Source of the DNA: a virus
DNA length: 49,480 bases
Virus record (IMG/VR): IMGVR_UViG_3300021387_000130
Location: 1-49,480 of that record
Reading direction: 5' to 3' (one strand)
Shown: piece by piece, positions 2,442 through 44,962 of the stretch
Position numbering within the stretch: the first letter of the stretch is position 1
Layout: each line of letters begins with the position of its first letter
Program-made: the position numbers and the translations under genes
The notes under the pieces: model-generated
What the model was told of the DNA's origin: nothing
Databases searched by the model: none
What the model saw: only the letters and a program-made list of their open reading frames with translations

Positions 2442-3187
2442 TACTGTTCGCCCTCCTTAAATTTTACGAAGTCCTCAATCTTACAAGCCTTACGGCTATC
2501 AATCTGGTTCTTGGCATAAATATTTTGCGTAGCCTCAAGCAGGATGCCGTGCTGACCATCCTTGTTAACAAATATCTTTCCTACCACATCGCAGAGCCCG
2601 CAGATGTTGTCTACAATCTTCGCACTGCATTTAGGATAAAGCCTGCTGTACTGCGATCCGTCAGGTGATGTAAACTGCTCTACGGTCTCCCATGCTGTCC
2701 AGACTATATTCACTCCAAGAGCTTTCATCTGCCTCAGGCTGTTAACAAGTTTAAACTGCATATACTGGTAGTCAGCCATTGCAGGAACGCCCTTGTTTTT
2801 GCCCTTCGAACCAAGATCACTCAGGATGCATCTTTCCAGTTCAGAAATATTGTCAACCGCAATCGTCCTGATATTTGCCGCCTTAAGCTGTCCTGCCTGA
2901 GCCATTTCCGTGAGGTCATTCATGACTGATGTCCAAGCATCAAACGTATTGATGTTGTCCACCTGCTTAATAAACACCCTGCTCGTGTCTTTTACAACCT
3001 CTTTTTTGGCAAGAGTCTTCATAATTGTTCTATCTACATCGAGCACTAATGTATTGCCTTCGGATGCCTCTGCAATCAGTCCGATTGCAGTGCTCTTGCC
3101 AACCCCCGGTGGGCAGTAAAGCAATGCAGTATAACAACTGTCTGCCTGCAATGCATCATCAAATTTACGGATTTCCATAATCACCAT
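2441..3187 (-). CDS. AAA_24 / Sak4-like RecA-type ATPase
   Basis: Walker A LLYCPPGVGKST is followed by TLVLDVDRT. The start is uncertain: 3187 or 3178, against 3253 in the track. Confidence 0.7.
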   Translation of the reverse strand: MVIMEIRKFDDALQADSCYTALLYCPPGVGKSTAIGLIAEASEGNTLVLDVDRTIMKTLAKKEVVKDTSRVFIKQVDNINTFDAWTSVMNDLTEMAQAGQLKAANIRTIAVDNISELERCILSDLGSKGKNKGVPAMADYQYMQFKLVNSLRQMKALGVNIVWTAWETVEQFTSPDGSQYSRLYPKCSAKIVDNICGLCDVVGKIFVNKDGQHGILLEATQNIYAKNQIDSRKACKIEDFVKFKEGEQ

Positions 3188-3941
3188 CCCTTCTTGCAAA
3201 TTCCACATATTCCTGATTTGGGTCATAGTGTAAGCATATCGAAGCATACTCACATATCCTGCCCCAGTGTCTACAGTATGCAGTGTTCCGGTAGAAATGA
3301 TCTGTAGAGTTCATTTCCTGAGCCATGTGTTCAAGAGCTTCGGAAAACTCCTGCACCTCCGCATCCGTGCGAGTAATAAGCATGACTCTGATTTTCGCTT
3401 CCGTATCTTCGTCATACCATTCCACCATTCTATTAAAGAACTCCTCATCCGACTCGTTTTTCTTCTGCCTGATTGTGGGCTTCCTGCAGACAGTGTAATA
3501 AATTTCTCTTACCCCGGTCATCAGCATATACGCTAATATCTGTTCATCCCACTGCAGATTGTATTCATATTCCTCAGTAATGTCAGAGCTTGTTGTCTTG
3601 TGTTCCACAAGCCTCCCATCCTCTGCTATTCCATCAAGCCTGCCCACCAGTTCGTCCCCAGTGCAAAGCTTGTAAGATTTCCATTCTTCACAAGCTCTGA
3701 CTCTGAATTTTGGATAGACATATTTTTGATATGCCGTTGCCATGGCAAGCTCTTTGGAATAGTTTCCATCATAAGCTGAAAGATTGCCATCTTTGTACAG
3801 TGTTTCAAGGATATCATGATACCGCAATCCTGTCTGAAGCGCATCCGCACTCTGTACTGGCTCCAAGCCCTCCACATACTTCAGCTCGTAAGCTCTGCGG
3901 CATGCCTTAAACAGCTTAATCCGGCTTATGCTGAATCTCAT
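3165..3941 (-). CDS. PD-(D/E)xK exonuclease, Cas4/RecB-like with a 4-Cys cluster
   Basis: Contains RLDGIAEDGRLVEHKTT (D...EhK). An N-terminal Cys (FKACRRAY) plus C-terminal CRHWGRICEYASIC resemble Cas4 Fe-S ligands. Confidence 0.7.
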   Translation of the reverse strand: MRFSISRIKLFKACRRAYELKYVEGLEPVQSADALQTGLRYHDILETLYKDGNLSAYDGNYSKELAMATAYQKYVYPKFRVRACEEWKSYKLCTGDELVGRLDGIAEDGRLVEHKTTSSDITEEYEYNLQWDEQILAYMLMTGVREIYYTVCRKPTIRQKKNESDEEFFNRMVEWYDEDTEAKIRVMLITRTDAEVQEFSEALEHMAQEMNSTDHFYRNTAYCRHWGRICEYASICLHYDPNQEYVEFARRDGDYGNP

Positions 3942-4204
3942 TTAGAGTCCTCCATGTCTTCACCAATGATTTCTTTTATCGCCTTAGTGAAAAGCTCCTC
4001 AATCTTGCTTTCATCAGCGATAACAATCTCTGGAAAAAGCTCTCTTAAGTACATATCGAATACCAGAAGGTCATCGTCATCGCCCTTCTCTTTTATGGTC
4101 TTGCGGATTTCTCGGCTGATAATGGAAAGCTCAGCACATATCTCACCGAGACTGCCCTTTATATTTGTTGCACAATTCCCATCGTTACATAATACGTTGA
4201 TCAT
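3938..4204 (-). CDS. Hypothetical protein
   Basis: 88-aa ORF, translationally coupled to its neighbours. No recognisable motif. Confidence 0.4.
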   Translation of the reverse strand: MINVLCNDGNCATNIKGSLGEICAELSIISREIRKTIKEKGDDDDLLVFDMYLRELFPEIVIADESKIEELFTKAIKEIIGEDMEDSK

Positions 4205-4380
4205 TTTTCCCCTCCGATTACCATTTCAATCTTCACTCTGGTTACCCGACTTGGCGTCTGGGTATCCGTCTCAATTGAATTAATCGTTTGCAAAGAGACT
4301 CCGCATCTCTTTGCAAGCTCTGCCTGCGAGATGCGCTCTTTTGCACGATAAATTACCATGCGTTCGCTAAGTTCCGACAT
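4201..4380 (-). CDS. XRE-family helix-turn-helix regulator
   Basis: Contains the HTH ISQAELAKRCGVSLQTINSIE. The start at MSELS follows GAGGAGGTGA. Confidence 0.7.
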   Translation of the reverse strand: MSELSERMVIYRAKERISQAELAKRCGVSLQTINSIETDTQTPSRVTRVKIEMVIGGEK

Positions 4381-4394
4381 TGTTTCACCTCCTC

Positions 4395-4757
4395 TCATTC
4401 GCACATGACTGCAACATTGCGGCCACCGTCTTTTTTGCAGATTATGACCATATTGGCTATAATTCTGTTTATATCATCATCAGACAGGTCTGTTGTTTCA
4501 CCTGCCTGATTGTGATTAGCAAAAACAAGATTGCCCACAAGCATTGGCTCTCCATTCGGGCCAATCGCACTGACAATCGGCTGTTCCCTCCACATCCCTA
4601 TATCATCACAAAAGATGTCATATGACTGTCCGCCTATCTTACGAACTGCGATGTCGAACGGATCGGCATCCAATTCCCGGTAGAAGTCATCGAGGCTCTC
4701 ACACTGAGCCTCTCTGACCTTCTTGTTTCTGACATCGAGCACCAGAACTCGTGCCAT
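4395..4757 (-). CDS. DUF3846-like protein (family associated with anti-restriction regions)
   Basis: VLVLDVRNKKVRE...LDDFYRELDADPFDIAV...DIFCDDIGMW...GNLVF resembles DUF3846. It is the first gene after promoter 4811-4839. Confidence 0.4.
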   Translation of the reverse strand: MARVLVLDVRNKKVREAQCESLDDFYRELDADPFDIAVRKIGGQSYDIFCDDIGMWREQPIVSAIGPNGEPMLVGNLVFANHNQAGETTDLSDDDINRIIANMVIICKKDGGRNVAVMCE

Positions 4758-4810
4758 TTATTCATCCTCCTTATCTTGGGCTCTTGCTTCATTTCGTGGT
4801 TTCTGTGTAT

Positions 4811-4839
4811 ACTATAGCACACTCCATAAAGCATGTCAA
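4811..4839 (-). promoter_or_regulatory. Sigma-A/sigma-70-type promoter, member of an 8-copy family
   Basis: Minus strand reads TTGACA-17 nt-TATAGT, with an A/T-rich stretch (AAAATATATA) upstream of the -35. Confidence 0.7.
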
Positions 4840-4845
4840 TATATA

Positions 4846-4985
4846 TTTTTATATATTTTTATTTTTCTTTTTATTCTACAAAAGAATATAAAGAAATAGT
4901 GTAGGATAAAGATGCATTTAGGAAAAGTCTCCTATAGAGTGGTCTCTATAGAAAAGTTTACCGAAATGTATGATAATCCTACACT
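4846..4985. repeat. Element A: AT-rich tract plus an 88-bp quasi-palindrome (core 4898-4985). An inverted copy lies at 27975-28108.
   Basis: The core is agtgtaggat...atcctacact, centred on CTATAGAG-tggt-CTCTATAG. Its arms are distinguishable (alpha ataaagat/gtctc, beta attatcat/ctttt) and occur in the opposite order in element B. Confidence 0.8.
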
Positions 4986-4992
4986 GTAAAAC

Positions 4993-5024
4993 CAAAAAAA
5001 AGATAGCGGATTACTCCGCTATCT
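4993..5024 (-). terminator. Rho-independent terminator (minus strand)
   Basis: A 10-bp stem AGAUAGCGGA/UCCGCUAUCU with a 4-nt loop is followed by UUUUUUUU. It overlaps the stop codon of 5011..5355. Confidence 0.8.
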
Positions 5025-5355
5025 TTCTCATAACGCCGTCATAAAGTTTTGGATTAATCACCTTCAGCGTAGACATAAGCTCATCCATGATGTCCCACAT
5101 ATCCCATGCATTTCTGCCTTTGATCGCTTGTGAAAATTCGGTCTCACCTCCGTATTCAACAACGCTGTCATTATAGGGAATACTTGGAGCCGCAGAAAAA
5201 GAATACGTTGGCTCTGCTTCCTGATCATTATTATCACCGAACAAGTGCTGTTGAATGATATAGAACGCCGCAAGCTTCATACATGTGTTAGCATTCGGAT
5301 TTCTCACGCCCTCGCATTCAGCAATGGCTTCCTGCAAGTCCTTCTCTGTAATCAC
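5011..5355 (-). CDS. Hypothetical protein (accessory cluster)
   Basis: 114-aa ORF with no recognised domain. Confidence 0.45.
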   Translation of the reverse strand: MITEKDLQEAIAECEGVRNPNANTCMKLAAFYIIQQHLFGDNNDQEAEPTYSFSAAPSIPYNDSVVEYGGETEFSQAIKGRNAWDMWDIMDELMSTLKVINPKLYDGVMRKIAE

Positions 5356-5370
5356 AAGAAGCCACCTCCA

Positions 5371-5781
5371 TTACATTTCCTGCATCAATTCACGCATCTT
5401 GCGCTTGATCTGTTCGTTCGGCGCGTCTTCCATAAGCTCTTCAAGATCCATGCGGAAATTGTTTTCAGCCATGGAATATCCGCGCTCCCGAGAGTAGCGT
5501 CCCATATTATCTCTGCGTACGTTCCCACCACGACCACGCGCATAGGAACCACCACGGTTACCTCTTCCGCCGCCTTCTTCAGCGTAGGAAGTCATCGGAT
5601 AGTACGCCATACTGTACTCGCCATACTCATCTTCCATCATCTCATCTGCTTTCATGAGGTTTTTCTTCAGATGAGCAAGTGTATCGGCATACTGAACTTC
5701 CTGCATAGACAGGTTGCCACGCTCTGCTTTCTTCTCAAGGCTCTTAAGCTCGTCACAGACATACTCATATAACTTATGCAT
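5371..5781 (-). CDS. Hypothetical coiled-coil / RGG-rich protein
   Basis: The start at MHKLYEY follows AAGGAGG. There is a central GGGRGNRGGSYARGRGGN low-complexity tract. Confidence 0.45.
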   Translation of the reverse strand: MHKLYEYVCDELKSLEKKAERGNLSMQEVQYADTLAHLKKNLMKADEMMEDEYGEYSMAYYPMTSYAEEGGGRGNRGGSYARGRGGNVRRDNMGRYSRERGYSMAENNFRMDLEELMEDAPNEQIKRKMRELMQEM

Positions 5782-5798
5782 CGCCTTTACCTCCTTTC

Positions 5799-6254
5799 TC
5801 AAGCGGTACGATCTACGGTCAACGAAGCGTTTCTCCGTACAAATATTGACGGAGTAGGTGTTACGCTTGCATCATCCTCTGTGGCGTCCACATAGGCGGC
5901 AGATATGGATACACAGCATCCACACGGAACCGTAATCGTAGCGGATGTATGAATATGCCATACATCCTCTGCCGCCGCAGGAGTCACAATCGCAACACTA
6001 TCAGGAATTGCTACACCATTCAGTGTGATGGCGAGAGCGATCGGTGTGATCGCCCCACCTTCCGGAATGGCGACATTCGCCTGAAGATCAACTTCGTATC
6101 TCGCAAATCTGTTTGATGTGTTGCCCTTCAAAGTAAGAACTCCAGTTGTAATAGGGATGACGCATCCCTTATTACACGGAATAGATACAATGTTGAACGG
6201 AATCGTATTGTTTAACGCAACATTCTGATCCGTGCTTGTAATATACTTTGCCAT
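5799..6254 (-). CDS. Beta-rich Cys-containing protein of unknown function
   Basis: 151 aa with Cys motifs IPCNKGC and VPCGCC. The composition resembles small jelly-roll fibre or exosporium-type subunits, but this is only a resemblance. Confidence 0.4.
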   Translation of the reverse strand: MAKYITSTDQNVALNNTIPFNIVSIPCNKGCVIPITTGVLTLKGNTSNRFARYEVDLQANVAIPEGGAITPIALAITLNGVAIPDSVAIVTPAAAEDVWHIHTSATITVPCGCCVSISAAYVDATEDDASVTPTPSIFVRRNASLTVDRTA

Positions 6255-6269
6255 GGCGCATCACCTCAT

Positions 6270-6691
6270 TCAGTTCACGAAACCGTTACCGCCGCATCCA
6301 CAGCCACACTGATTCTGACCGCACGTGAAGATCGGAGTGCGACCATACACAGGTGTAGTCGGGACAGGGCAGGAGTTCAGGCGGTTATACAGCGCATCAA
6401 CTTCGTTGGCAAAGCCCTGAGAAATAAAGGCATTCTGTGCCGTCTGAGACTCACGAAGAGCCGCCATATTGAGCTGATTCTGGAGTCCGACATTTTCTCT
6501 CTGAGCCGCCGCAAGCTGACCTTTAACACCGTCAAGCTCAAGAGCGCACAGCTTGTCGAGGATTGCCTGAGTGCCACGGTTCTGAGCATCGATGATGTCT
6601 CTCGTGTTCTGCATGGACTGAGTTCTGTCCGCGCAGTTCTCCGTGGCTATTGTGTACTTCAGATCAGCCGTGCCGAGTCTGTTTTCACAGC
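6270..6691 (-). CDS. Exon 2 of the intron-split Gly-rich membrane-protein gene
   Basis: The frame is open 26 codons upstream of the track's Met (..CENRLGTADLKYTIATENCADRTQS-MQNT..) with no start codon or RBS of its own. The boundary is good to about 3 nt. Confidence 0.6.
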
Positions 6692-7629
6692 CATTTTGTT
6701 ATCGTATAGGCTCTTTATCCTATACTTCTTATGGTTTCCCATAAGTTCAGACTATATCTTCACCCTCTCATAAAGAGTAGGGGTCGGGCACTCGTGTCGG
6801 GATTATTGGTAGTCGTCCTCACCCATTAGTCGTTGAGCCTTCCGTGGTACTTTCATCGACATTCCCACGGCTTGGGTGCTGATTGCCATGCATATTTTTA
6901 TGTTTATATTGTTTCTGAGGTTCTACAAAACAGATTTTTCCGTTTGGAGTCTTCCCTTTTTTGCTCCATGTAAGAATATTGCTATAAGAGATACCTAACT
7001 TCTCTTTCGCTTCTTTAATGGAATTATATGTAGTGTCGCCTATCGTTACTTTTCGCCTTTTCTGACCGTTTGTTTTTTCTGCAATATTAGGATCGCTCAT
7101 AGGATTAGAATCCTTCATTCGCTTTCTTTGGTTTTCAGACTTCATTACATTCTTTTCAGAATATTGATTTCTTAACTCGTCTGTCCACCAAGATTTCACT
7201 CCACCAGTTCCACCTTCGTAGATATTGCAGACACATTGTCCTATTTCTTTAAGTTCGTGTACTCTTATATATTCATAATCAAATGCATCTTGTTCATTTT
7301 CAAAATATTTGATTATTCTGCTTTCACAATCAAATCTTCTAACCATATCGTTAAAAAATCTGTTATGCTTTCGTACTTTGTAACGATTATTGCAACCTTT
7401 TCCTACGTAAATTATTTCTCCTGTTTCTTTAATGAACCATTCATAAACATAAAACATATTTACACCTCCGCATTGTTTTTATATATTATAACACAAAATC
7501 AATGCGAAAACAATATGTTTAGGTTTCCAGCAATTCACCCGATTGCCAGTGCGGATTACGCCGCACAACTGCCTACTGTGTATTTTGTAAATACAAGACT
7601 ATCTTTGGCTTTTTTGATAATCTTCTTTA
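6692..7629 (-). mobile_element. Group I intron carrying a GIY-YIG homing endonuclease ORF
   Basis: Minus-strand RNA hallmarks:
- AAGAUAUAGUC (6750-6760, J8/7-P7) with partner GACUA (6810-6814).
- P8 CCCUACUC/GAGAGGG.
- Hairpin CUUAUGG-GAAA-CCAUAAG (6728-6745).
- Hairpin GUAUAGG/CCUAUAC (6704-6725).
- A terminal G.
- Guide GGCAGUU (7567-7573), which pairs with the exon-1 end GACUGCU including a U-G wobble.
- CACAG (7576-7580), which pairs with exon-2 CUGUG. Confidence 0.7.
6819..7457 (-). CDS. GIY-YIG homing endonuclease (intron-encoded)
   Basis: N-terminal YVYEWFIKETGEIIYVGKG...NRY...R...N...E is the GIY-YIG module. NUMOD3-like repeats and a C-terminal HTH (YNSIKEAKEKLGISYSNILTW) follow. Confidence 0.85.
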   Translation of the reverse strand: MFYVYEWFIKETGEIIYVGKGCNNRYKVRKHNRFFNDMVRRFDCESRIIKYFENEQDAFDYEYIRVHELKEIGQCVCNIYEGGTGGVKSWWTDELRNQYSEKNVMKSENQRKRMKDSNPMSDPNIAEKTNGQKRRKVTIGDTTYNSIKEAKEKLGISYSNILTWSKKGKTPNGKICFVEPQKQYKHKNMHGNQHPSRGNVDESTTEGSTTNG

Positions 7630-8134
7630 AGCAGTCAGCAAACTGAGAACCAAGCTGATTAAAGCCCTGAGTCATAGCTGTCTGCCCTGCAAAGGCTGTC
7701 TGCATATTTGCCATCTGACGAGCATTTGCGGCAGTTTCAGCATTTGCAAACCCGGAATTGACTGTTGCATTAACCCCTGCAAAACCATTGCAAAGACTCT
7801 GCTGTACACCACCAAAACCATTGCAAAGCTGTGTAGAGATGTCACCAATGCTGTCTCTGATAGAGGTAACATTCGTGTTCATCATCTGGTCACGGAATCC
7901 ATCATTAATCTGATTGCTCTGGTTCATCCACGGATAAAGGACAGCACCATCTGCGGCAAAGTTTCCAACGCCGCCTCCAAAGCCTCCCCAACCGTTGTTG
8001 CCGATGAGAAGGAAAAGAAGCAAAACCCACCAACCGTCTGCACCGAAGCCGCTTCCGAAACCGTTGCCTGAGCCACCATACATGGGGGCAACTGGCATCA
8101 CCATTCCGTTTCCGCTTTCATCTGTAAGAGCCAT
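7630..8134 (-). CDS. Exon 1 of the intron-split Gly-rich membrane-protein gene (YjcZ-like N-terminal TM segment)
   Basis: GSGFGADGWWVLLLFLLIGNNGWGGFGGG resembles tiny YjcZ-type Gly-rich TM peptides. NGF/SGF repeats follow. The track ORF's last about 25 codons (to 7556) are read-through into the intron. Confidence 0.6.
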
Positions 8135-8236
8135 AGTTTTTCCTTTCTACCCATAACTATTTTGGGTGAGCGGCTACTCTCATACGAGTAGTCGGTTAAT
8201 AGTTTATCTCAAAGCCCTGCGCACTGACTCTGTGAC

Positions 8237-8431
8237 CTATACACCAAGCATTTTCTGCAGGGCTTTTGCCTGCTGAACAGCTTGATCATACTGTTGCTGT
8301 GTGATTTTCCCTGAATTTAACAACTGCTGAACCTGTTGCTGTGGATTACCATGAAAGGATTGTTTGAACTGCTGAAACCTTTGTAACAGGCTATTCTGGT
8401 TACCCATCATGTCATACAGCGGATTGCTCAT
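8237..8431 (-). CDS. Gln-rich small protein
   Basis: 64 aa and very Q-rich. It ends in TAG. Confidence 0.45.
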   Translation of the reverse strand: MSNPLYDMMGNQNSLLQRFQQFKQSFHGNPQQQVQQLLNSGKITQQQYDQAVQQAKALQKMLGV

Positions 8432-8834
8432 CTGTTGTTCCTCCCTTCACAATAGCGGAAATCTGCTCCCGGATTTGTTTCTCAAAAGCCGCAAGCTCTT
8501 CTCTGGTCACAAAATCTTTCTGAGCCTGTGGGTTTATTGCCTGACTTTGCTGTGCAGGCTGAACGGCATCCCTGATCTTGTAATCCAACACTTTCATGCT
8601 AGGCATCCCACTTGCATCTGCGGATTTGAGATAGATCACCTGATTTTCGCTGTCCCAAAGCTGAACAGTTGTGTTTGGCGCAACGAGATAAGATTTTGCT
8701 CCTGCCTCACCCTGCACCCAGATGATGCCATTTTGCTGTGGCTGAGATGCTCCCGACATCTGTGTCGGAGACATCTGCTGATATGATGGATAATACGGTT
8801 GGTATCCTACTGGAAAATTGTACGCCATGCTCAC
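8412..8834 (-). CDS. Hypothetical protein with a Q/P/Y-rich N-terminus
   Basis: 140 aa. The N-terminus is low-complexity YQPYYPSYQQMSPTQ, followed by a conserved-looking core IIWVQGEAGAKSYLVAPNTTVQLWD. Confidence 0.45.
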   Translation of the reverse strand: MSMAYNFPVGYQPYYPSYQQMSPTQMSGASQPQQNGIIWVQGEAGAKSYLVAPNTTVQLWDSENQVIYLKSADASGMPSMKVLDYKIRDAVQPAQQSQAINPQAQKDFVTREELAAFEKQIREQISAIVKGGTTDEQSAV

Positions 8835-9211
8835 TCATCCTTTCTGTACCATACATAGACTGGGATTTCCTGACTGCTATTCCAAGAGTCGTAAAGGTCA
8901 CCATTCACAACAGTGGCAACGTGCCCTCCGAAGCCTAGGACAAATGTTCCGTGAGGATTATCTTCCGCAAAGTTTTCCGCAGTGTAGCACTCAGGGCAAG
9001 TATTTGGTATCGCCCTGCGATAAAAGCCATTCTGCCGAAGCACGGAACCCCATACGCTGTCAGAGCTCGGCATATCACCCATGTAATAGCCGTTGGTAAC
9101 AATCAGCATATAGGCTGTTTCCCAGTCAATTTTCAGAGCTTTTGCTACGGCACGGACAGCGCAATCACCTACTGTTCGCCCGGTCGGATTTGGATTGTAT
9201 TTGATATACAT
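8831..9211 (-). CDS. Putative papain-like/C39-like cysteine peptidase-fold protein
   Basis: YNPNPTGRTVGDCAVRAVAKAL (candidate catalytic Cys) and GGHVATVV (candidate His). The start at MYIKY follows GAGGTGG. Confidence 0.4.
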   Translation of the reverse strand: MYIKYNPNPTGRTVGDCAVRAVAKALKIDWETAYMLIVTNGYYMGDMPSSDSVWGSVLRQNGFYRRAIPNTCPECYTAENFAEDNPHGTFVLGFGGHVATVVNGDLYDSWNSSQEIPVYVWYRKDE

Positions 9212-9285
9212 ATTGCCACCTCGCACAATAATCATATCGTCACAGGTGGCAATGAACCATGAAGCCAGTATGTAATTTATAGGCA

Positions 9286-9311
9286 ATAAAAAAGCACCCT
9301 TGCGAGTGCTT
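9286..9311 (-). terminator. Probable rho-independent terminator (minus strand)
   Basis: A 7-bp stem AAGCACU/GGUGCUU with a 6-nt loop runs into UUUUUU. Confidence 0.45.
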
Positions 9312-11872: not shown

Positions 11873-13222
11873 TTAAACGGCTTGGATATAAGCAGATGAA
11901 ACAAAGCCGTAATATTTACCTGCGATTCTGATGTAATACCAAGGTTTGCCATTCTTGGCTGTGACCTTATCGCACACATCTACAAGATTGCCATAAGCAA
12001 GCACAGGATATGATTTGATGTTAGGATACTCAGTTCCTGCCCAAGTCCGCACATTGAGATAATCCGCAGTAACTCTGCTGACCCACTGCGGCTCTTTGCT
12101 AAGCTCAGTATCGGCAGACTGCTGTTCAGGCTCAGGCTTTTCCACAGGCTTATCGGCAATGCTTCCTTCCGCATATTTTGGAGCCGCATAGCCCCTGATA
12201 TAACCCCATCCAACAGGAATGTGGCGTTTTCTTACTGCGTTACCATAGTTGCCTTCAATGACAGTAATGATATTGCCGGATGCTCCATGGGAAATGCTTT
12301 CCACTATGCCGATATGATCTGCATACCCATCATTCGGCTGAGTTACATCATCCCAATTGTAAGTGATGATATAGCCGGGCTTCGGAATGATATTTCCGTT
12401 TTCAATCCAGATGCCCTTTGCTTTGAAAATCTTAATGTGTTCCTCTACGCCGCATTCCACGTTACCAATCAAGCTCACTGCGCCTGCCTTGATAAATGCC
12501 GCTGAGATGGTAGTATCGCACCAAGCTACGCCATACGGAACTCTGTATCCCCTCGGATAGCCGTACTTTTCACCATAAGCATTGTAAATATCGATGATCT
12601 GCTTGTATTTGCCGTTAGACTCGGAAAAGCCAACCCAAGAGTCCATGATGCCTATGATGTCCTCTGCAGTGACATTGGTATCACTGGAGCTTGCCATCAT
12701 TTCATCATAAATTGCTTTGCCATAGCTGTATCTGATGCTTTGCACATAAGCGCTCTGGTCTGCAGGCATCTCAAACTTCATGAGCACAGCATTTGATGCG
12801 ACCATGATATCTTTTGTGGAAATAAGCGTGTTCAACACCGACTTATAATCGGTAGCAAGCTCACTAATCAGAAATTCAAGCTGTGCATTCAAGTCTCCGA
12901 TAGAAACACCTGCTTTTTTGCAGTAATCATACAATCTATGTTTTCTGCTTGGGCTTGTCCACTGAGCTAAGCCGTATCCGTACTGCTTAGCCATAGGGCG
13001 CAGAAATTCTGCTTCTGAGATTGTGCCGTTATCCACGGCTTCTGTGTAAGAAGCATCCGTATATACTTTTCCGATCTGTCTATATCTGTTTAAGCACAAG
13101 ATTTCCACACGATTTGCGATTAACCCGGATTCGGCCTGCAGATTGCCCATCAGCCCTGCCGCTCCCTGAGGCGTAAGCCCTGCGCCAGTCAGAAAATCCC
13201 ATATCACTTTTACGTCAGACAT
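11873..13222 (-). CDS. Endolysin: lysozyme-like N-terminal domain + CHAP + SH3
   Basis: LTPQGAAGLMGNLQAESGL is a phage tail-lysozyme-type motif. The CHAP domain is marked by Cys (VAWCDTTISAAF) and His (ADHIGIV). The C-terminus has SH3-like YLNVRTWAG...WYYIRIAGKYYGFV. Confidence 0.8.
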   Translation of the reverse strand: MSDVKVIWDFLTGAGLTPQGAAGLMGNLQAESGLIANRVEILCLNRYRQIGKVYTDASYTEAVDNGTISEAEFLRPMAKQYGYGLAQWTSPSRKHRLYDYCKKAGVSIGDLNAQLEFLISELATDYKSVLNTLISTKDIMVASNAVLMKFEMPADQSAYVQSIRYSYGKAIYDEMMASSSDTNVTAEDIIGIMDSWVGFSESNGKYKQIIDIYNAYGEKYGYPRGYRVPYGVAWCDTTISAAFIKAGAVSLIGNVECGVEEHIKIFKAKGIWIENGNIIPKPGYIITYNWDDVTQPNDGYADHIGIVESISHGASGNIITVIEGNYGNAVRKRHIPVGWGYIRGYAAPKYAEGSIADKPVEKPEPEQQSADTELSKEPQWVSRVTADYLNVRTWAGTEYPNIKSYPVLAYGNLVDVCDKVTAKNGKPWYYIRIAGKYYGFVSSAYIQAV

Positions 13223-43633: not shown

Positions 43634-44890
43634 TTACATCCTGCTAATGATGTTTCTCAGGGCTCTTTTATATTTACTGTCAAGAATAATACCGTTGCAG
43701 ATGATGTTCAGGTCATCCTTTTCCAAGCCCTTGACCAAGCAAGTTTCCAGAGCCTCTTCAATATCCAAAATCTGAAGCATCTTGGCAAGCCTTCCGATTG
43801 CCCGGTAGCTTACGATAACCTGCTGTCCTGCCTTGTGAGCGGCGTTGCGGAACTCTCTACAGAACTGTGCAAGCTCGTGATCACCTGCAATCGAGTTTTC
43901 GATGGCTTCGGAATAGCCAATCTTCACGATTGCGAAGCGATCAAGGGAAGCGGCGTCAAGCTGATTGCGCCCTACATATTCGTAAGACGCTCCCTGTCCC
44001 ACTGTGTTACCTGCGGCGATTACCCGAAAATCGGAATGCGCTTCTCTGTATCCGATCGGTGCAGGGAAATCAAAGTACCTGTTTGCGATTGCCGCATTCA
44101 GGATCACTAGAACCTCGGGAATAGAAGCATCCATCTCGTCAAGCATGAATACCCCACCCTGCGTGAATGCTTTGTAAAACTGGGTTTCCTGATAGTTCCC
44201 CATGGCATCTGTGAAGCCTGTGAGCTTGTATTCCTGCGTGACGGCATTCGTGAAATAAAACTTCAGTCCAAGCGCTTCCGCAACCTGCTTACACAGGACA
44301 TTCTTACCGGAACCTGCGGGGCCAGTCAGGAAAACTGGTTCATTATTGCTGACAAACTTCAGCACGGTTTCAAACTTCTCATGCTGAATGCCCTGCATTG
44401 GAACCTTTTTACCATCGACCACCGTGATGATCTTCCGTTCGATGGTTCCATATTCCTCTTTGATGAATTCCCGAACCTTGTCCTCGACCTGCCCCATGAT
44501 CTCGGATTCGATTTTTTCAGCCTGCGTTTTGGAAATCAGCTGAATGACTGCCTGTTCGAGTATTCCCATAGAATACTGAACCTGCTTTTCTGTAACTTGC
44601 GACTGAGGCTCCGGCTCTGCCGCCTGCTGAGGCTCTGCCGCCCCTTTTACTTCACACATACACTCGAAAAAAGAGCATTTATCGTACGCAGTGTTTGCGG
44701 CGTAATCCCGGATATAATCTTTTAATGTTTTAACATCGCCCCGCAAAGCTTCAAGAGCTTCTAAAGCCAAATTAATATTACTTGTCGGGTTCTCTTCACT
44801 CCCAGATCTGAGAGCATATCCGGTCTGCATGTTATAGAACCGGATAATCATTTTAGCCGCGGCCTTTTCGTTTTCACTATAATGTTTCAT
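43634..44890 (-). CDS. AAA+ ATPase (AAA_5; MoxR/CbbQ/CobS-like) with a 170-aa unknown N-terminal region
   Basis: Walker A FLTGPAGSGKN and Walker B VFMLDEMD. The start at MKHYSEN follows the CCCAAGGAGGTCAAAC leader. Confidence 0.7.
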   Translation of the reverse strand: MKHYSENEKAAAKMIIRFYNMQTGYALRSGSEENPTSNINLALEALEALRGDVKTLKDYIRDYAANTAYDKCSFFECMCEVKGAAEPQQAAEPEPQSQVTEKQVQYSMGILEQAVIQLISKTQAEKIESEIMGQVEDKVREFIKEEYGTIERKIITVVDGKKVPMQGIQHEKFETVLKFVSNNEPVFLTGPAGSGKNVLCKQVAEALGLKFYFTNAVTQEYKLTGFTDAMGNYQETQFYKAFTQGGVFMLDEMDASIPEVLVILNAAIANRYFDFPAPIGYREAHSDFRVIAAGNTVGQGASYEYVGRNQLDAASLDRFAIVKIGYSEAIENSIAGDHELAQFCREFRNAAHKAGQQVIVSYRAIGRLAKMLQILDIEEALETCLVKGLEKDDLNIICNGIILDSKYKRALRNIISRM

Positions 44891-44933
44891 GTTTGACCTC
44901 CTTGGGTTCAAGTTAATTTCTTCATCTGTAAAC

Positions 44934-44962
44934 AATATAGCGCTTACTAATAATTATGTCAA
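44934..44962 (-). promoter_or_regulatory. Sigma-A-type promoter (family member)
   Basis: Minus strand reads AAAAAATATATTGACA-17 nt-TATATT, with GCGC before the -10. Confidence 0.7.

Follow-up and report, generated by a model that had tools for sequence, protein, structure and literature searches.

Do three open reading frames (ORFs) that lie in a row on one strand of a phage genome represent three genes, or one gene with an intron in it? We examined this question at positions 6270-8134, minus strand, of the 49,480-nt IMG/VR virus record IMGVR_UViG_3300021387_000130 (the whole of which is called the window below), where ORFs at 7556..8134 and 6270..6614 flank a third ORF of 212 amino acids (aa) at 6819..7457. 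A preliminary description of this DNA had proposed that the two outer ORFs are halves of a single gene, divided by a group I intron with a GIY-YIG endonuclease. Our analysis makes it very likely that a single phage gene is interrupted here by a mobile group I intron, probably of the subgroup IA type, which carries a putative homing endonuclease of the GIY-YIG type, and that the host is a phage late gene predicted to encode a single-pass membrane protein of ~308 aa.

The outer ORFs themselves bear the marks of a divided gene. The upstream ORF starts at 8134, after a plausible ribosome-binding site, reads to ..QLGSQFADC and then continues for 24 more codons to a UAA at 7558-7556. The downstream frame is open from 6700 to its end at 6270, with its first Met at 6614; 25 open codons (CENRLGTADLKYTIATENCADRTQS) precede this Met, no Shine-Dalgarno sequence lies ahead of it, and the conserved CENRLGTADLKY... 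region sits upstream of it. Joining 7630 to 6691 gives a 927-nt, 308-codon ORF, the two halves of which match one family collinearly: the upstream half aligns with positions 5-130 and the downstream half with positions 140-283 of the 286-position PHROG 16490. Along its whole length exon 1 can be aligned with uninterrupted homologues, to which it is 85-89% identical, and both exons are intact, with no frameshift. When the spliced protein was used as the query of a protein search, the best 120 of 8000 scored matches were all uninterrupted, 286-317 aa long and up to 88% identical. The gene is also uninterrupted in Butyrivibrio virus Ceridwen and in 35 of 35 GTDB loci, which come from rumen or gut Clostridia metagenome-assembled genomes (Acutalibacteraceae, Oscillospiraceae, Lachnospiraceae and Ruminococcus). 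The homologue search that the preliminary description had suggested thus recovered intronless homologues spanning the junction rather than halves kept as separate genes and, with the collinear family matches and the intronless DNA, it upholds the claim that the two ORFs belong to one gene.

The same comparisons fix the junction to the nucleotide. In an alignment of 16 sequences (the spliced window protein and 15 homologues), there is little or no variation in the junction region FADCCCENRLGxADLKYTxATENCADR, and FADCCCENRLG is invariant across the junction in the 15 aligned homologues. Intronless DNA alleles read GACTG(C/T)T followed directly by GCTGTGA at this point, those of two loci (L003 and L001) showing the target region around GACTGCTGCTGTGA, and the expected spliced RNA reads ...GACUGCU joined to GCUGUGAA. 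The insertion point therefore falls within the second Cys codon of the CCC-E-N-R motif, directly behind its first base. The junction originally preferred, 7630/6691, proves exact, since it restores the invariant FADCCCENRLG, and it cannot slide because the first and last bases of the intron differ from the adjoining exon bases. The alternative that had been allowed, 7633/6691, is ruled out, as it gives CC where all aligned homologues have CCC.

What lies between the exons has the anatomy of a group I ribozyme. At the gathering threshold Rfam gave no match in the window. In E-value mode, the window yielded a single Rfam match, RF00028 (Intron_gpI, gathering score 50 bits), at 39.7 bits and E 1e-6; the segment P7-P3'-P8-J8/7-P9 is well aligned in it, and P1-P5 are misaligned into coding sequence. 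The search with this model that had been suggested earlier therefore returned the intron as the sole match, at a score short of the cut-off. An alignment of relatives places the ORF in the P5a loop, and the shortfall is explained by the ~640-nt ORF in L5a, which splits the core. The alignment to the model is full-length (positions 1-253). Orthologues at the same site that lack the ORF, unlike the window copy, exceed the gathering score: L052 (364 nt) and L074 (363 nt) reach 73 and 71 bits respectively. For L033 and L036, which are more distant, the scores are 62 and 60 bits.

To these matches can be added extensive covariation, which together with the ORF-less orthologues bears out the group I class. 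With the collinear halves and the homologues that run across the junction, it takes the pattern far beyond chance. The set analysed consists of 11 distinct intron copies trimmed of the P5a loop and extended into exon 1 by 10 nt and into exon 2 by 8 nt; secondary structure was assigned by hand and pairs were counted on the alignment, the controls being the 3' partner slid by 1-3 columns and 500 shuffles. Over 14 helices (P1-P10), 79 pairs are 96.9% paired, compared with 33-40% when slid, and changes on both sides are seen in 30 pairs, compared with at most 9 when slid; the observed values were reached by none of the 500 shuffles. P3, P6 and P7 are invariant in the 11 copies, that is, fully paired but uninformative for covariation; the strands assigned to P3 agree with the Rfam alignment of L052. 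All core helices are intact in the window copy, where the unpaired cells are confined to the outermost P5a pairs. The L1 hairpins were left out of the pair counts because their register varies between copies in the MAFFT alignment, and they were examined by single-sequence folding instead; the segment 7640-7545, which holds P1, the two L1 hairpins and P2, folds at -28.5 kcal/mol (z -3.7), and relatives have equivalent L1 hairpins of different sequence.

Covariation also reaches into both exons. The exon sequence GACUGCU occurs with the guide GGCAGUU in 3 copies, and GAGUGCU or CAGUGCU occurs with GGCACUU or GGUACUU in the other 8, the pair between exon position -5 and the guide being C-G in the former and G-C in the latter. 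The equivalent of the U7630-G7573 wobble is present in 11/11 copies. In P10, alignment columns 76 and 372 hold A-U in 7 copies, G-C in 3 and G-U in 1, and the guide ACAG or GCAG tracks the exon-2 codon UGU or UGC. Every element listed in the preliminary description is found where it was placed, and most are confirmed by these data, namely the guide GGCAGUU at 7573-7567 with its U-G wobble, the P10 pairing of CACAG (7580-7576) with exon-2 CUGUG, P8, the GAAA hairpin at 6745-6728, the second hairpin at 6725-6704 and the terminal G at 6692, the equivalent of which is present in all copies. P7 had to be revised in part: its 3' partner within AAGAUAUAGUC (6760-6750) holds, but the GACUA at 6814-6810 that had been taken as its 5' strand is present in the window copy only, and the conserved strand is at 6831-6827.

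Positions 6783-6831 of the window copy contain internal duplications (ACGACUA at 6833-6827 and 6816-6810; CCCGAC at 6801-6796 and 6788-6783), the second ACGACUA being absent from the relatives, which carry GGACGGAAACC there; such short duplications invite helix misassignment. A helix between P7 and P3' points to subgroup IA. A second extra helix (P7.2/P7.1a) was not demonstrable in the 11 copies, which have just an invariant GG..CC in the P7.1 loop.

Features of the split gene and its intron, all on the minus strand of the window; a slash separates the two strands of a helix or, in the 3' end sequence, marks the splice junction.
Feature	Position	Strand	Remarks
Exon 1	7630..8134	-	codons 1-168 and first base of Cys169
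Exon 2	6270..6691	-	last two bases of Cys169 through stop; no start codon before 6614
Group I intron	6692..7629	-	938 nt, after U7630 to terminal G6692; CCC junction and intronless DNA
Homing endonuclease ORF	6819..7457	-	212 aa; putative divergent GIY-YIG catalytic domain then putative NUMOD1/helix-turn-helix (HTH) region; in P5a loop
RBS (ribosome-binding site) hairpin	7465..7510	-	UUUUCGCAUUG (7510-7500) / CAAUGCGGAGG (7475-7465), 11 bp
P1	7636-7630 / 7573-7567	-	U7630-G7573 wobble at splice site
Internal guide (P1 3' strand)	7567..7575	-	GGCAGUU with exon-1 GACUGCU, and two pairs reaching into intron
L1 hairpins	7624-7616 / 7603-7595, 7594-7589 / 7585-7580	-	peripheral extension, length varies between copies
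P10	7580-7576 / 6690-6686	-	guide CACAG with exon-2 CUGUG
P2	7566-7561 / 7554-7549	-	GUGCGG/CCGCAC, loop CGUAAU; 6/6 pairs compensatory
P3	7542-7536 / 6790-6784	-	
P4	7532-7527 / 6882-6877	-	compensatory changes; L052 Rfam alignment agrees
P5	7523-7522 / 6887-6886	-	compensatory changes; L052 Rfam alignment agrees
P5a	7518-7511 / 6897-6890	-	compensatory changes; L052 Rfam alignment agrees
P6	6875-6874 / 6839-6838	-	Rfam alignment
P6a	6870-6865 / 6847-6842	-	5/6 pairs compensatory
P7	6831-6827 / 6754-6750	-	GACUA with UAGUC; 5' strand invariant 11/11, Rfam-aligned
P7.1	6825-6822 / 6801-6798	-	UGGG/CCCG; 3/4 pairs compensatory
P8	6782-6775 / 6769-6763	-	CCCUACUC/GAGAGGG
J8/7 UGAAGAUA	between P8 and P7 3' strand	-	
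AAGAUAUAGUC	6760-6750	-	RNA motif ending in P7 3' strand UAGUC
P9	6745-6739 / 6734-6728	-	GAAA tetraloop; compensatory pairs
P9.1	6725-6719 / 6710-6704	-	compensatory pairs
3' tail GAUAACAAAAU and terminal G6692		-	...AAU(U)G/GCUG 3' end in all copies

With this anatomy, the intron would fold P1 to P9.1 after transcription. An external guanosine would attack after U7630, held in P1 by the guide GGCAGUU, and the 3'-OH of exon 1 would then attack after G6692, with P10 aligning exon 2, to give the full-length mRNA.

The ORF in the P5a loop matches PHROG 314 "homing endonuclease" (E 3.7e-9) and NUMOD1 at 18.8 bits (cut-off 22.8). In 24 relatives with 47-87% identity, PF01541 was found in 3 (best E 3.5e-6), NUMOD1 in 14 and I-TevI_DNA-bd in 3, and precomputed PF01541 annotations are recorded on two proteins (P0192 and P0212). 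Six residues, Y5, Y17 (in YVGKG), R25, H31, E62 and N78, are invariant in 25 family members; these are the probable counterparts of I-TevI Y6, Y17, R27, H31, E75 and N90, the GIY-YIG catalytic set. In the AlphaFold2 (AF2) model, which has a predicted local distance difference test (pLDDT) score of 71 and is confident at residues 1-71 and 120-180, a confidently modelled N-terminal domain of beta-beta-alpha-beta-alpha order is accompanied by a DNA-binding region made of helices. Its top Foldseek matches in the PDB are the GIY-YIG nuclease PD-T4-3 (prob 0.98) and the I-TevI catalytic domain 1ln0 (prob 0.92, target TM 0.58), joined by I-HmuI and the I-TevI DNA-binding domain. Because relatives reach PF01541, the catalytic residues are invariant and a weak structural match exists, we assign the endonuclease, with moderate confidence, to the divergent I-TevI-like GIY-YIG enzymes. 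The earlier GIY-YIG label for this ORF therefore stands by way of its relatives, catalytic residues and fold, but not by a match of the ORF itself to PF01541.

The last 79 nt of the endonuclease ORF (6897-6819) double as P5a', P4', P6, P6a and the 5' strands of P7 and P7.1, and the tail that the family conserves reads ..NQxPSxGNxDxSTxEGSTTN. This 30-residue tail is predicted to be disordered, so that the constraint which keeps it is probably one on the RNA and not on the protein. At the other end of the ORF, the hairpin listed in the table folds at -17.8 kcal/mol (z -4.2) and pairs the Shine-Dalgarno sequence GGAGG (7469-7465), and its loop contains an extended -10-like TGTTATAAT (7493-7485) with TATAAT at 7490-7485. 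Most endonuclease-bearing relatives have the same hairpin layout, with different stems and a conserved TATAAT. This arrangement parallels that of I-TevI, the ribosome-binding site of which is buried in a hairpin (PMC3073962). By analogy with I-TevI, the hairpin probably restrains endonuclease translation on the full-length pre-mRNA, and transcripts starting at the -10-like element in the loop would free it, as in T4 I-TevI (PMC3073962).

How widely is this site used? Searching IMG/VR with the endonuclease protein and the J8/7-P7 motif gave ~70 loci, and scanning metagenomes with a guide-P2-P3 pattern gave 85 further stretches, 54 of them with complete intron copies. Overall, well over 100 contigs of viruses and metagenomes carry the intron at the identical codon, although their host genes are only 25-60% identical in amino acids to that of the window. 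The complete metagenome copies would all splice to C/CC (54/54) and are 321-1296 nt long; 6 of them are ORF-less, and the endonucleases are 186-363 aa long. ORF-less copies at this site span 321-385 nt. Uninterrupted and occupied alleles are both found, which makes this precise site polymorphic for the intron. Over its 938 nt, the window intron shares 97.4% identity with that of another locus (L008), the flanking exons of the two sharing only 56-78%. Such polymorphism and such an identity pattern, which recent lateral transfer by homing would produce, show that the intron has moved. In a mixed infection, the endonuclease would be expected to cut intronless alleles near the CCC-coding site, and repair of the cut allele would copy the intron in. 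A known kind of element is present here at an insertion site that had not been reported and that is in wide use among gut and rumen phages; literature searches over open-access text turned up no intron described for this gene family or for Butyrivibrio virus Ceridwen.

A frameshifted endonuclease of the same family (74% identity, in two ORFs) was also seen at 2489-3062 of IMGVR_UViG_3300031867_000367 (L011), where its neighbours are unrelated genes and it does not interrupt a member of the host gene family; apparently this copy, either free-standing or transposed, is in decay.

It remains to be asked whether the same DNA could be read in another way. If 7556-8134 and 6270-6614 were two independent small genes, with a free-standing endonuclease gene between them and nothing spliced, then exon 2 would have to be expressed although its conserved N-terminal part has neither a start codon nor a ribosome-binding site, the CENRLGTADLKY... 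region being upstream of its first Met, and the homologues would not be expected to be single ORFs across the junction. It is true that all three appear as separate ORFs, that free-standing GIY-YIG genes between phage genes are common (PMC10448857) and that the broken copy in L011 lies outside the host gene. However, the spacer has the fold of a group I ribozyme, its helices covary, the covariation extends to both exons, and copies of 321-385 nt occupy the same site with no ORF at all; we consider three separate genes to be exceedingly improbable. Alternatively, the intron may be real but decayed, with the ribozyme and/or the endonuclease inactive and the host gene reduced to a pseudogene or to a truncated exon-1 product only. 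Homing elements commonly degenerate after fixation (PMC13619312), and the window copy does fall below the Rfam cut-off, just as its endonuclease misses the Pfam GIY-YIG family. Yet every core helix is intact in this copy, the insertion of the ORF explains the low Rfam score, the endonuclease ORF is full length with all of its invariant catalytic residues, and both exons are free of frameshifts and 85-89% identical to uninterrupted homologues. Moreover, a 97%-identical intron in a very different allele implies recent activity. We therefore regard decay as very unlikely, and a functional, mobile intron in a single gene as much the better account.

Several observations nevertheless weigh against a functional, mobile intron. 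The endonuclease has no Pfam PF01541 match at E<=1, searches of PDB sequences with it, both single-sequence and profile, found nothing relevant, and the E-values of its Foldseek matches are weak (0.09-0.7). The Rfam score of the window copy, at 39.7 bits, is under the gathering score of 50. The flanks of the window and L008 introns are identical for only ~17 nt upstream of the junction, with no long co-conversion tract. A consensus promoter scan did not list TGTTATAAT because it has no -35 match, which makes this element a candidate promoter only.

The closest well-studied parallel is the T4 td intron with its endonuclease I-TevI (group IA2), which splices itself, as is predicted for the window intron. 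Both are of the group I class and interrupt a protein-coding gene of a phage, and in both an extra helix stands between P7 and P3'. The ORF in a peripheral loop of td encodes a GIY-YIG nuclease with a NUMOD/HTH region, and that of the window is predicted to do so as well. The 3' end of the I-TevI ORF runs into the core helices, a phenomenon termed "core creep" (PMC3073962), of which the window intron is an extensive case, with an overlap of ~79 nt (P5a' through the P7.1 5' strand) compared with ~20 nt in td. The two also differ in the loop that holds the ORF (P5a in the window, P6 in td), in the host gene (an uncharacterised membrane protein as opposed to a nucleotide-metabolism enzyme) and in the endonuclease, that of the window being, unlike I-TevI, too divergent for the Pfam GIY-YIG cut-off. 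By blastn, the nearest relatives are introns in phages of Gram-positive bacteria. The 3' core at ~6889-6683 (P4' to P9.1) is 74-88% identical to these introns, namely those of the Clostridium perfringens phages CPQ4, phiCP13O and phiCP34O (tape-measure region), Lactobacillus JCL1032, S. thermophilus phages and Staphylococcus K/Twort-like phages, which share with it the J8/7-P7 GAAGAUAUAGUC and the GAAA-capped P9. In contrast, the 5' third (P1-P2 and the L1 hairpins), the endonuclease and the insertion site have no blastn similarity to those introns, which reside in tape-measure, helicase, lysin or terminase-region genes and not in PHROG 16490.

A further difference concerns the reading frame of exon 1. 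In most group I introns an in-frame stop codon follows immediately after the 5' splice site (PMC3073962), whereas in this family the exon-1 frame continues for 8-31 codons into the intron until a UAA or UAG codon of the P2 loop closes it (7629-7556 in the window). We surveyed this frame in 58 distinct metagenome variants and 14 IMG/VR variants. The position of the stop codon in the P2 loop is kept in 56 of the 58 metagenome variants. On its way the frame crosses the P1 loop and the guide, the latter translated as (A/T)-V-G-T/S; in none of the variants examined is it ended by a UAG immediately 5' of the guide. Twelve values were found for the distance from splice site to guide, and 11, 14, 26, 38, 50, 53, 56, 59, 68, 71 and 80 nt are congruent modulo 3, with 46 nt as the sole exception. 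In one variant (L120, Ga0247609_10047663), a 21-nt tandem duplication in the P1 loop (KKIFNNL-KKIFNNA) brings the loop to 80 nt and keeps the frame.

This modulo-3 rule is not explained by RNA structure, and translation must therefore be involved. The frame rule could serve to place a terminating ribosome just before P3, or to make a truncated isoform. It is conceivable, though we think it unlikely, that the first 62-86 nt of the intron are under a translational constraint of a kind not described for phage group I introns, in which either the unspliced mRNA is deliberately translated to a truncated membrane isoform, made up of the N-terminal half and an intron-encoded tail, or termination at L2 gates P1. 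If this were true, the intron would determine in what proportion two protein products are made, or would couple splicing to translation, and would not be phenotypically silent. We also considered conservation of the read-through tail peptide as independent evidence of a functional peptide and rejected it, because its K-rich and then F/L-rich pattern follows the A-rich and U-rich arms of the L1 hairpins.

These results have some practical consequences. Gene callers split the host gene into two "hypothetical proteins" and an unannotated endonuclease, and the same annotation error must affect at least 100 gut or rumen phage contigs. Homing endonucleases target sequences that are unable to drift, and the insertion site therefore flags CCC-E-N-R as probably critical, thereby serving as a pointer to function in a large phage protein family. 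The dozens of variants at one site, which include ORF-less forms and three endonuclease sizes, form a comparative data set and a natural system in which to follow endonuclease gain and loss and the overlap of ORF and ribozyme core, while the frame-preserving 5' segment permits a direct test of coordination between translation and splicing. The size of the family and the frame rule lift the interest of this locus slightly above that of a routine intron call.

The host protein itself is less well defined. In the part encoded by exon 1, the N-terminus is Gly-rich and is accompanied by a single predicted transmembrane helix and by half, the first, of a long helical region. Searches with the spliced protein gave no match in NCBIfam at E<=0.1 and none in Pfam at E<=10, which leaves the "YjcZ-like" label of the preliminary description with no supporting profile. 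Its only family is PHROG 16490 ("unknown"), in agreement with the earlier statement that the gene lies outside the usual targets of introns and has no assigned function. The family is nonetheless large (1131 clusters at 50% identity, E<=1e-3), and its invariant CCC-E-N-R motif is probably important for the protein. The AF2 model of an 88%-identical homologue (P0007) has a pLDDT of 41, too poor for a fold search, and shows only a transmembrane helix near residues 35-46 and long helices. In some distant members of the family the CCC motif is doubled. One of these (L023, 1900-2385) has it in ..QAQCCCNTQKEI.. and again 30 residues on in ..MAQC/CCDIKE.. (the slash marks the insertion point), with an intron only in the second.

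With respect to genome context, the window is a siphovirus-type phage genome with all genes on the minus strand, encoding a primase, helicase, large terminase, portal, major head protein, tape measure and tail protein, as well as an endolysin at 11873-13222. The split gene lies downstream of the endolysin, within a block of conserved genes of unassigned function. This syntenic block of ~7 genes (PHROGs 3754, 21718, 22984, 16490 and 20016, and two more) occupies 5011-9286 (minus) in the window, 4889-8176 in L001 and 3914-6296 in Butyrivibrio virus Ceridwen (L110), and is thus kept from rumen and gut metagenome phages to a cultured virus. Pfam and NCBIfam searches of the host protein and six neighbours returned nothing meaningful, no gene of the block having a family in either database. 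Elsewhere, in the replication region, a 433-aa ORF at 43634-44935 (minus) matches PHROG 249 "porphyrin biosynthesis" (9e-59) as well as AAA-ATPase and clamp-loader families, and the PHROG 249 label probably reflects a CobS/MoxR-like ATPase rather than metabolism.

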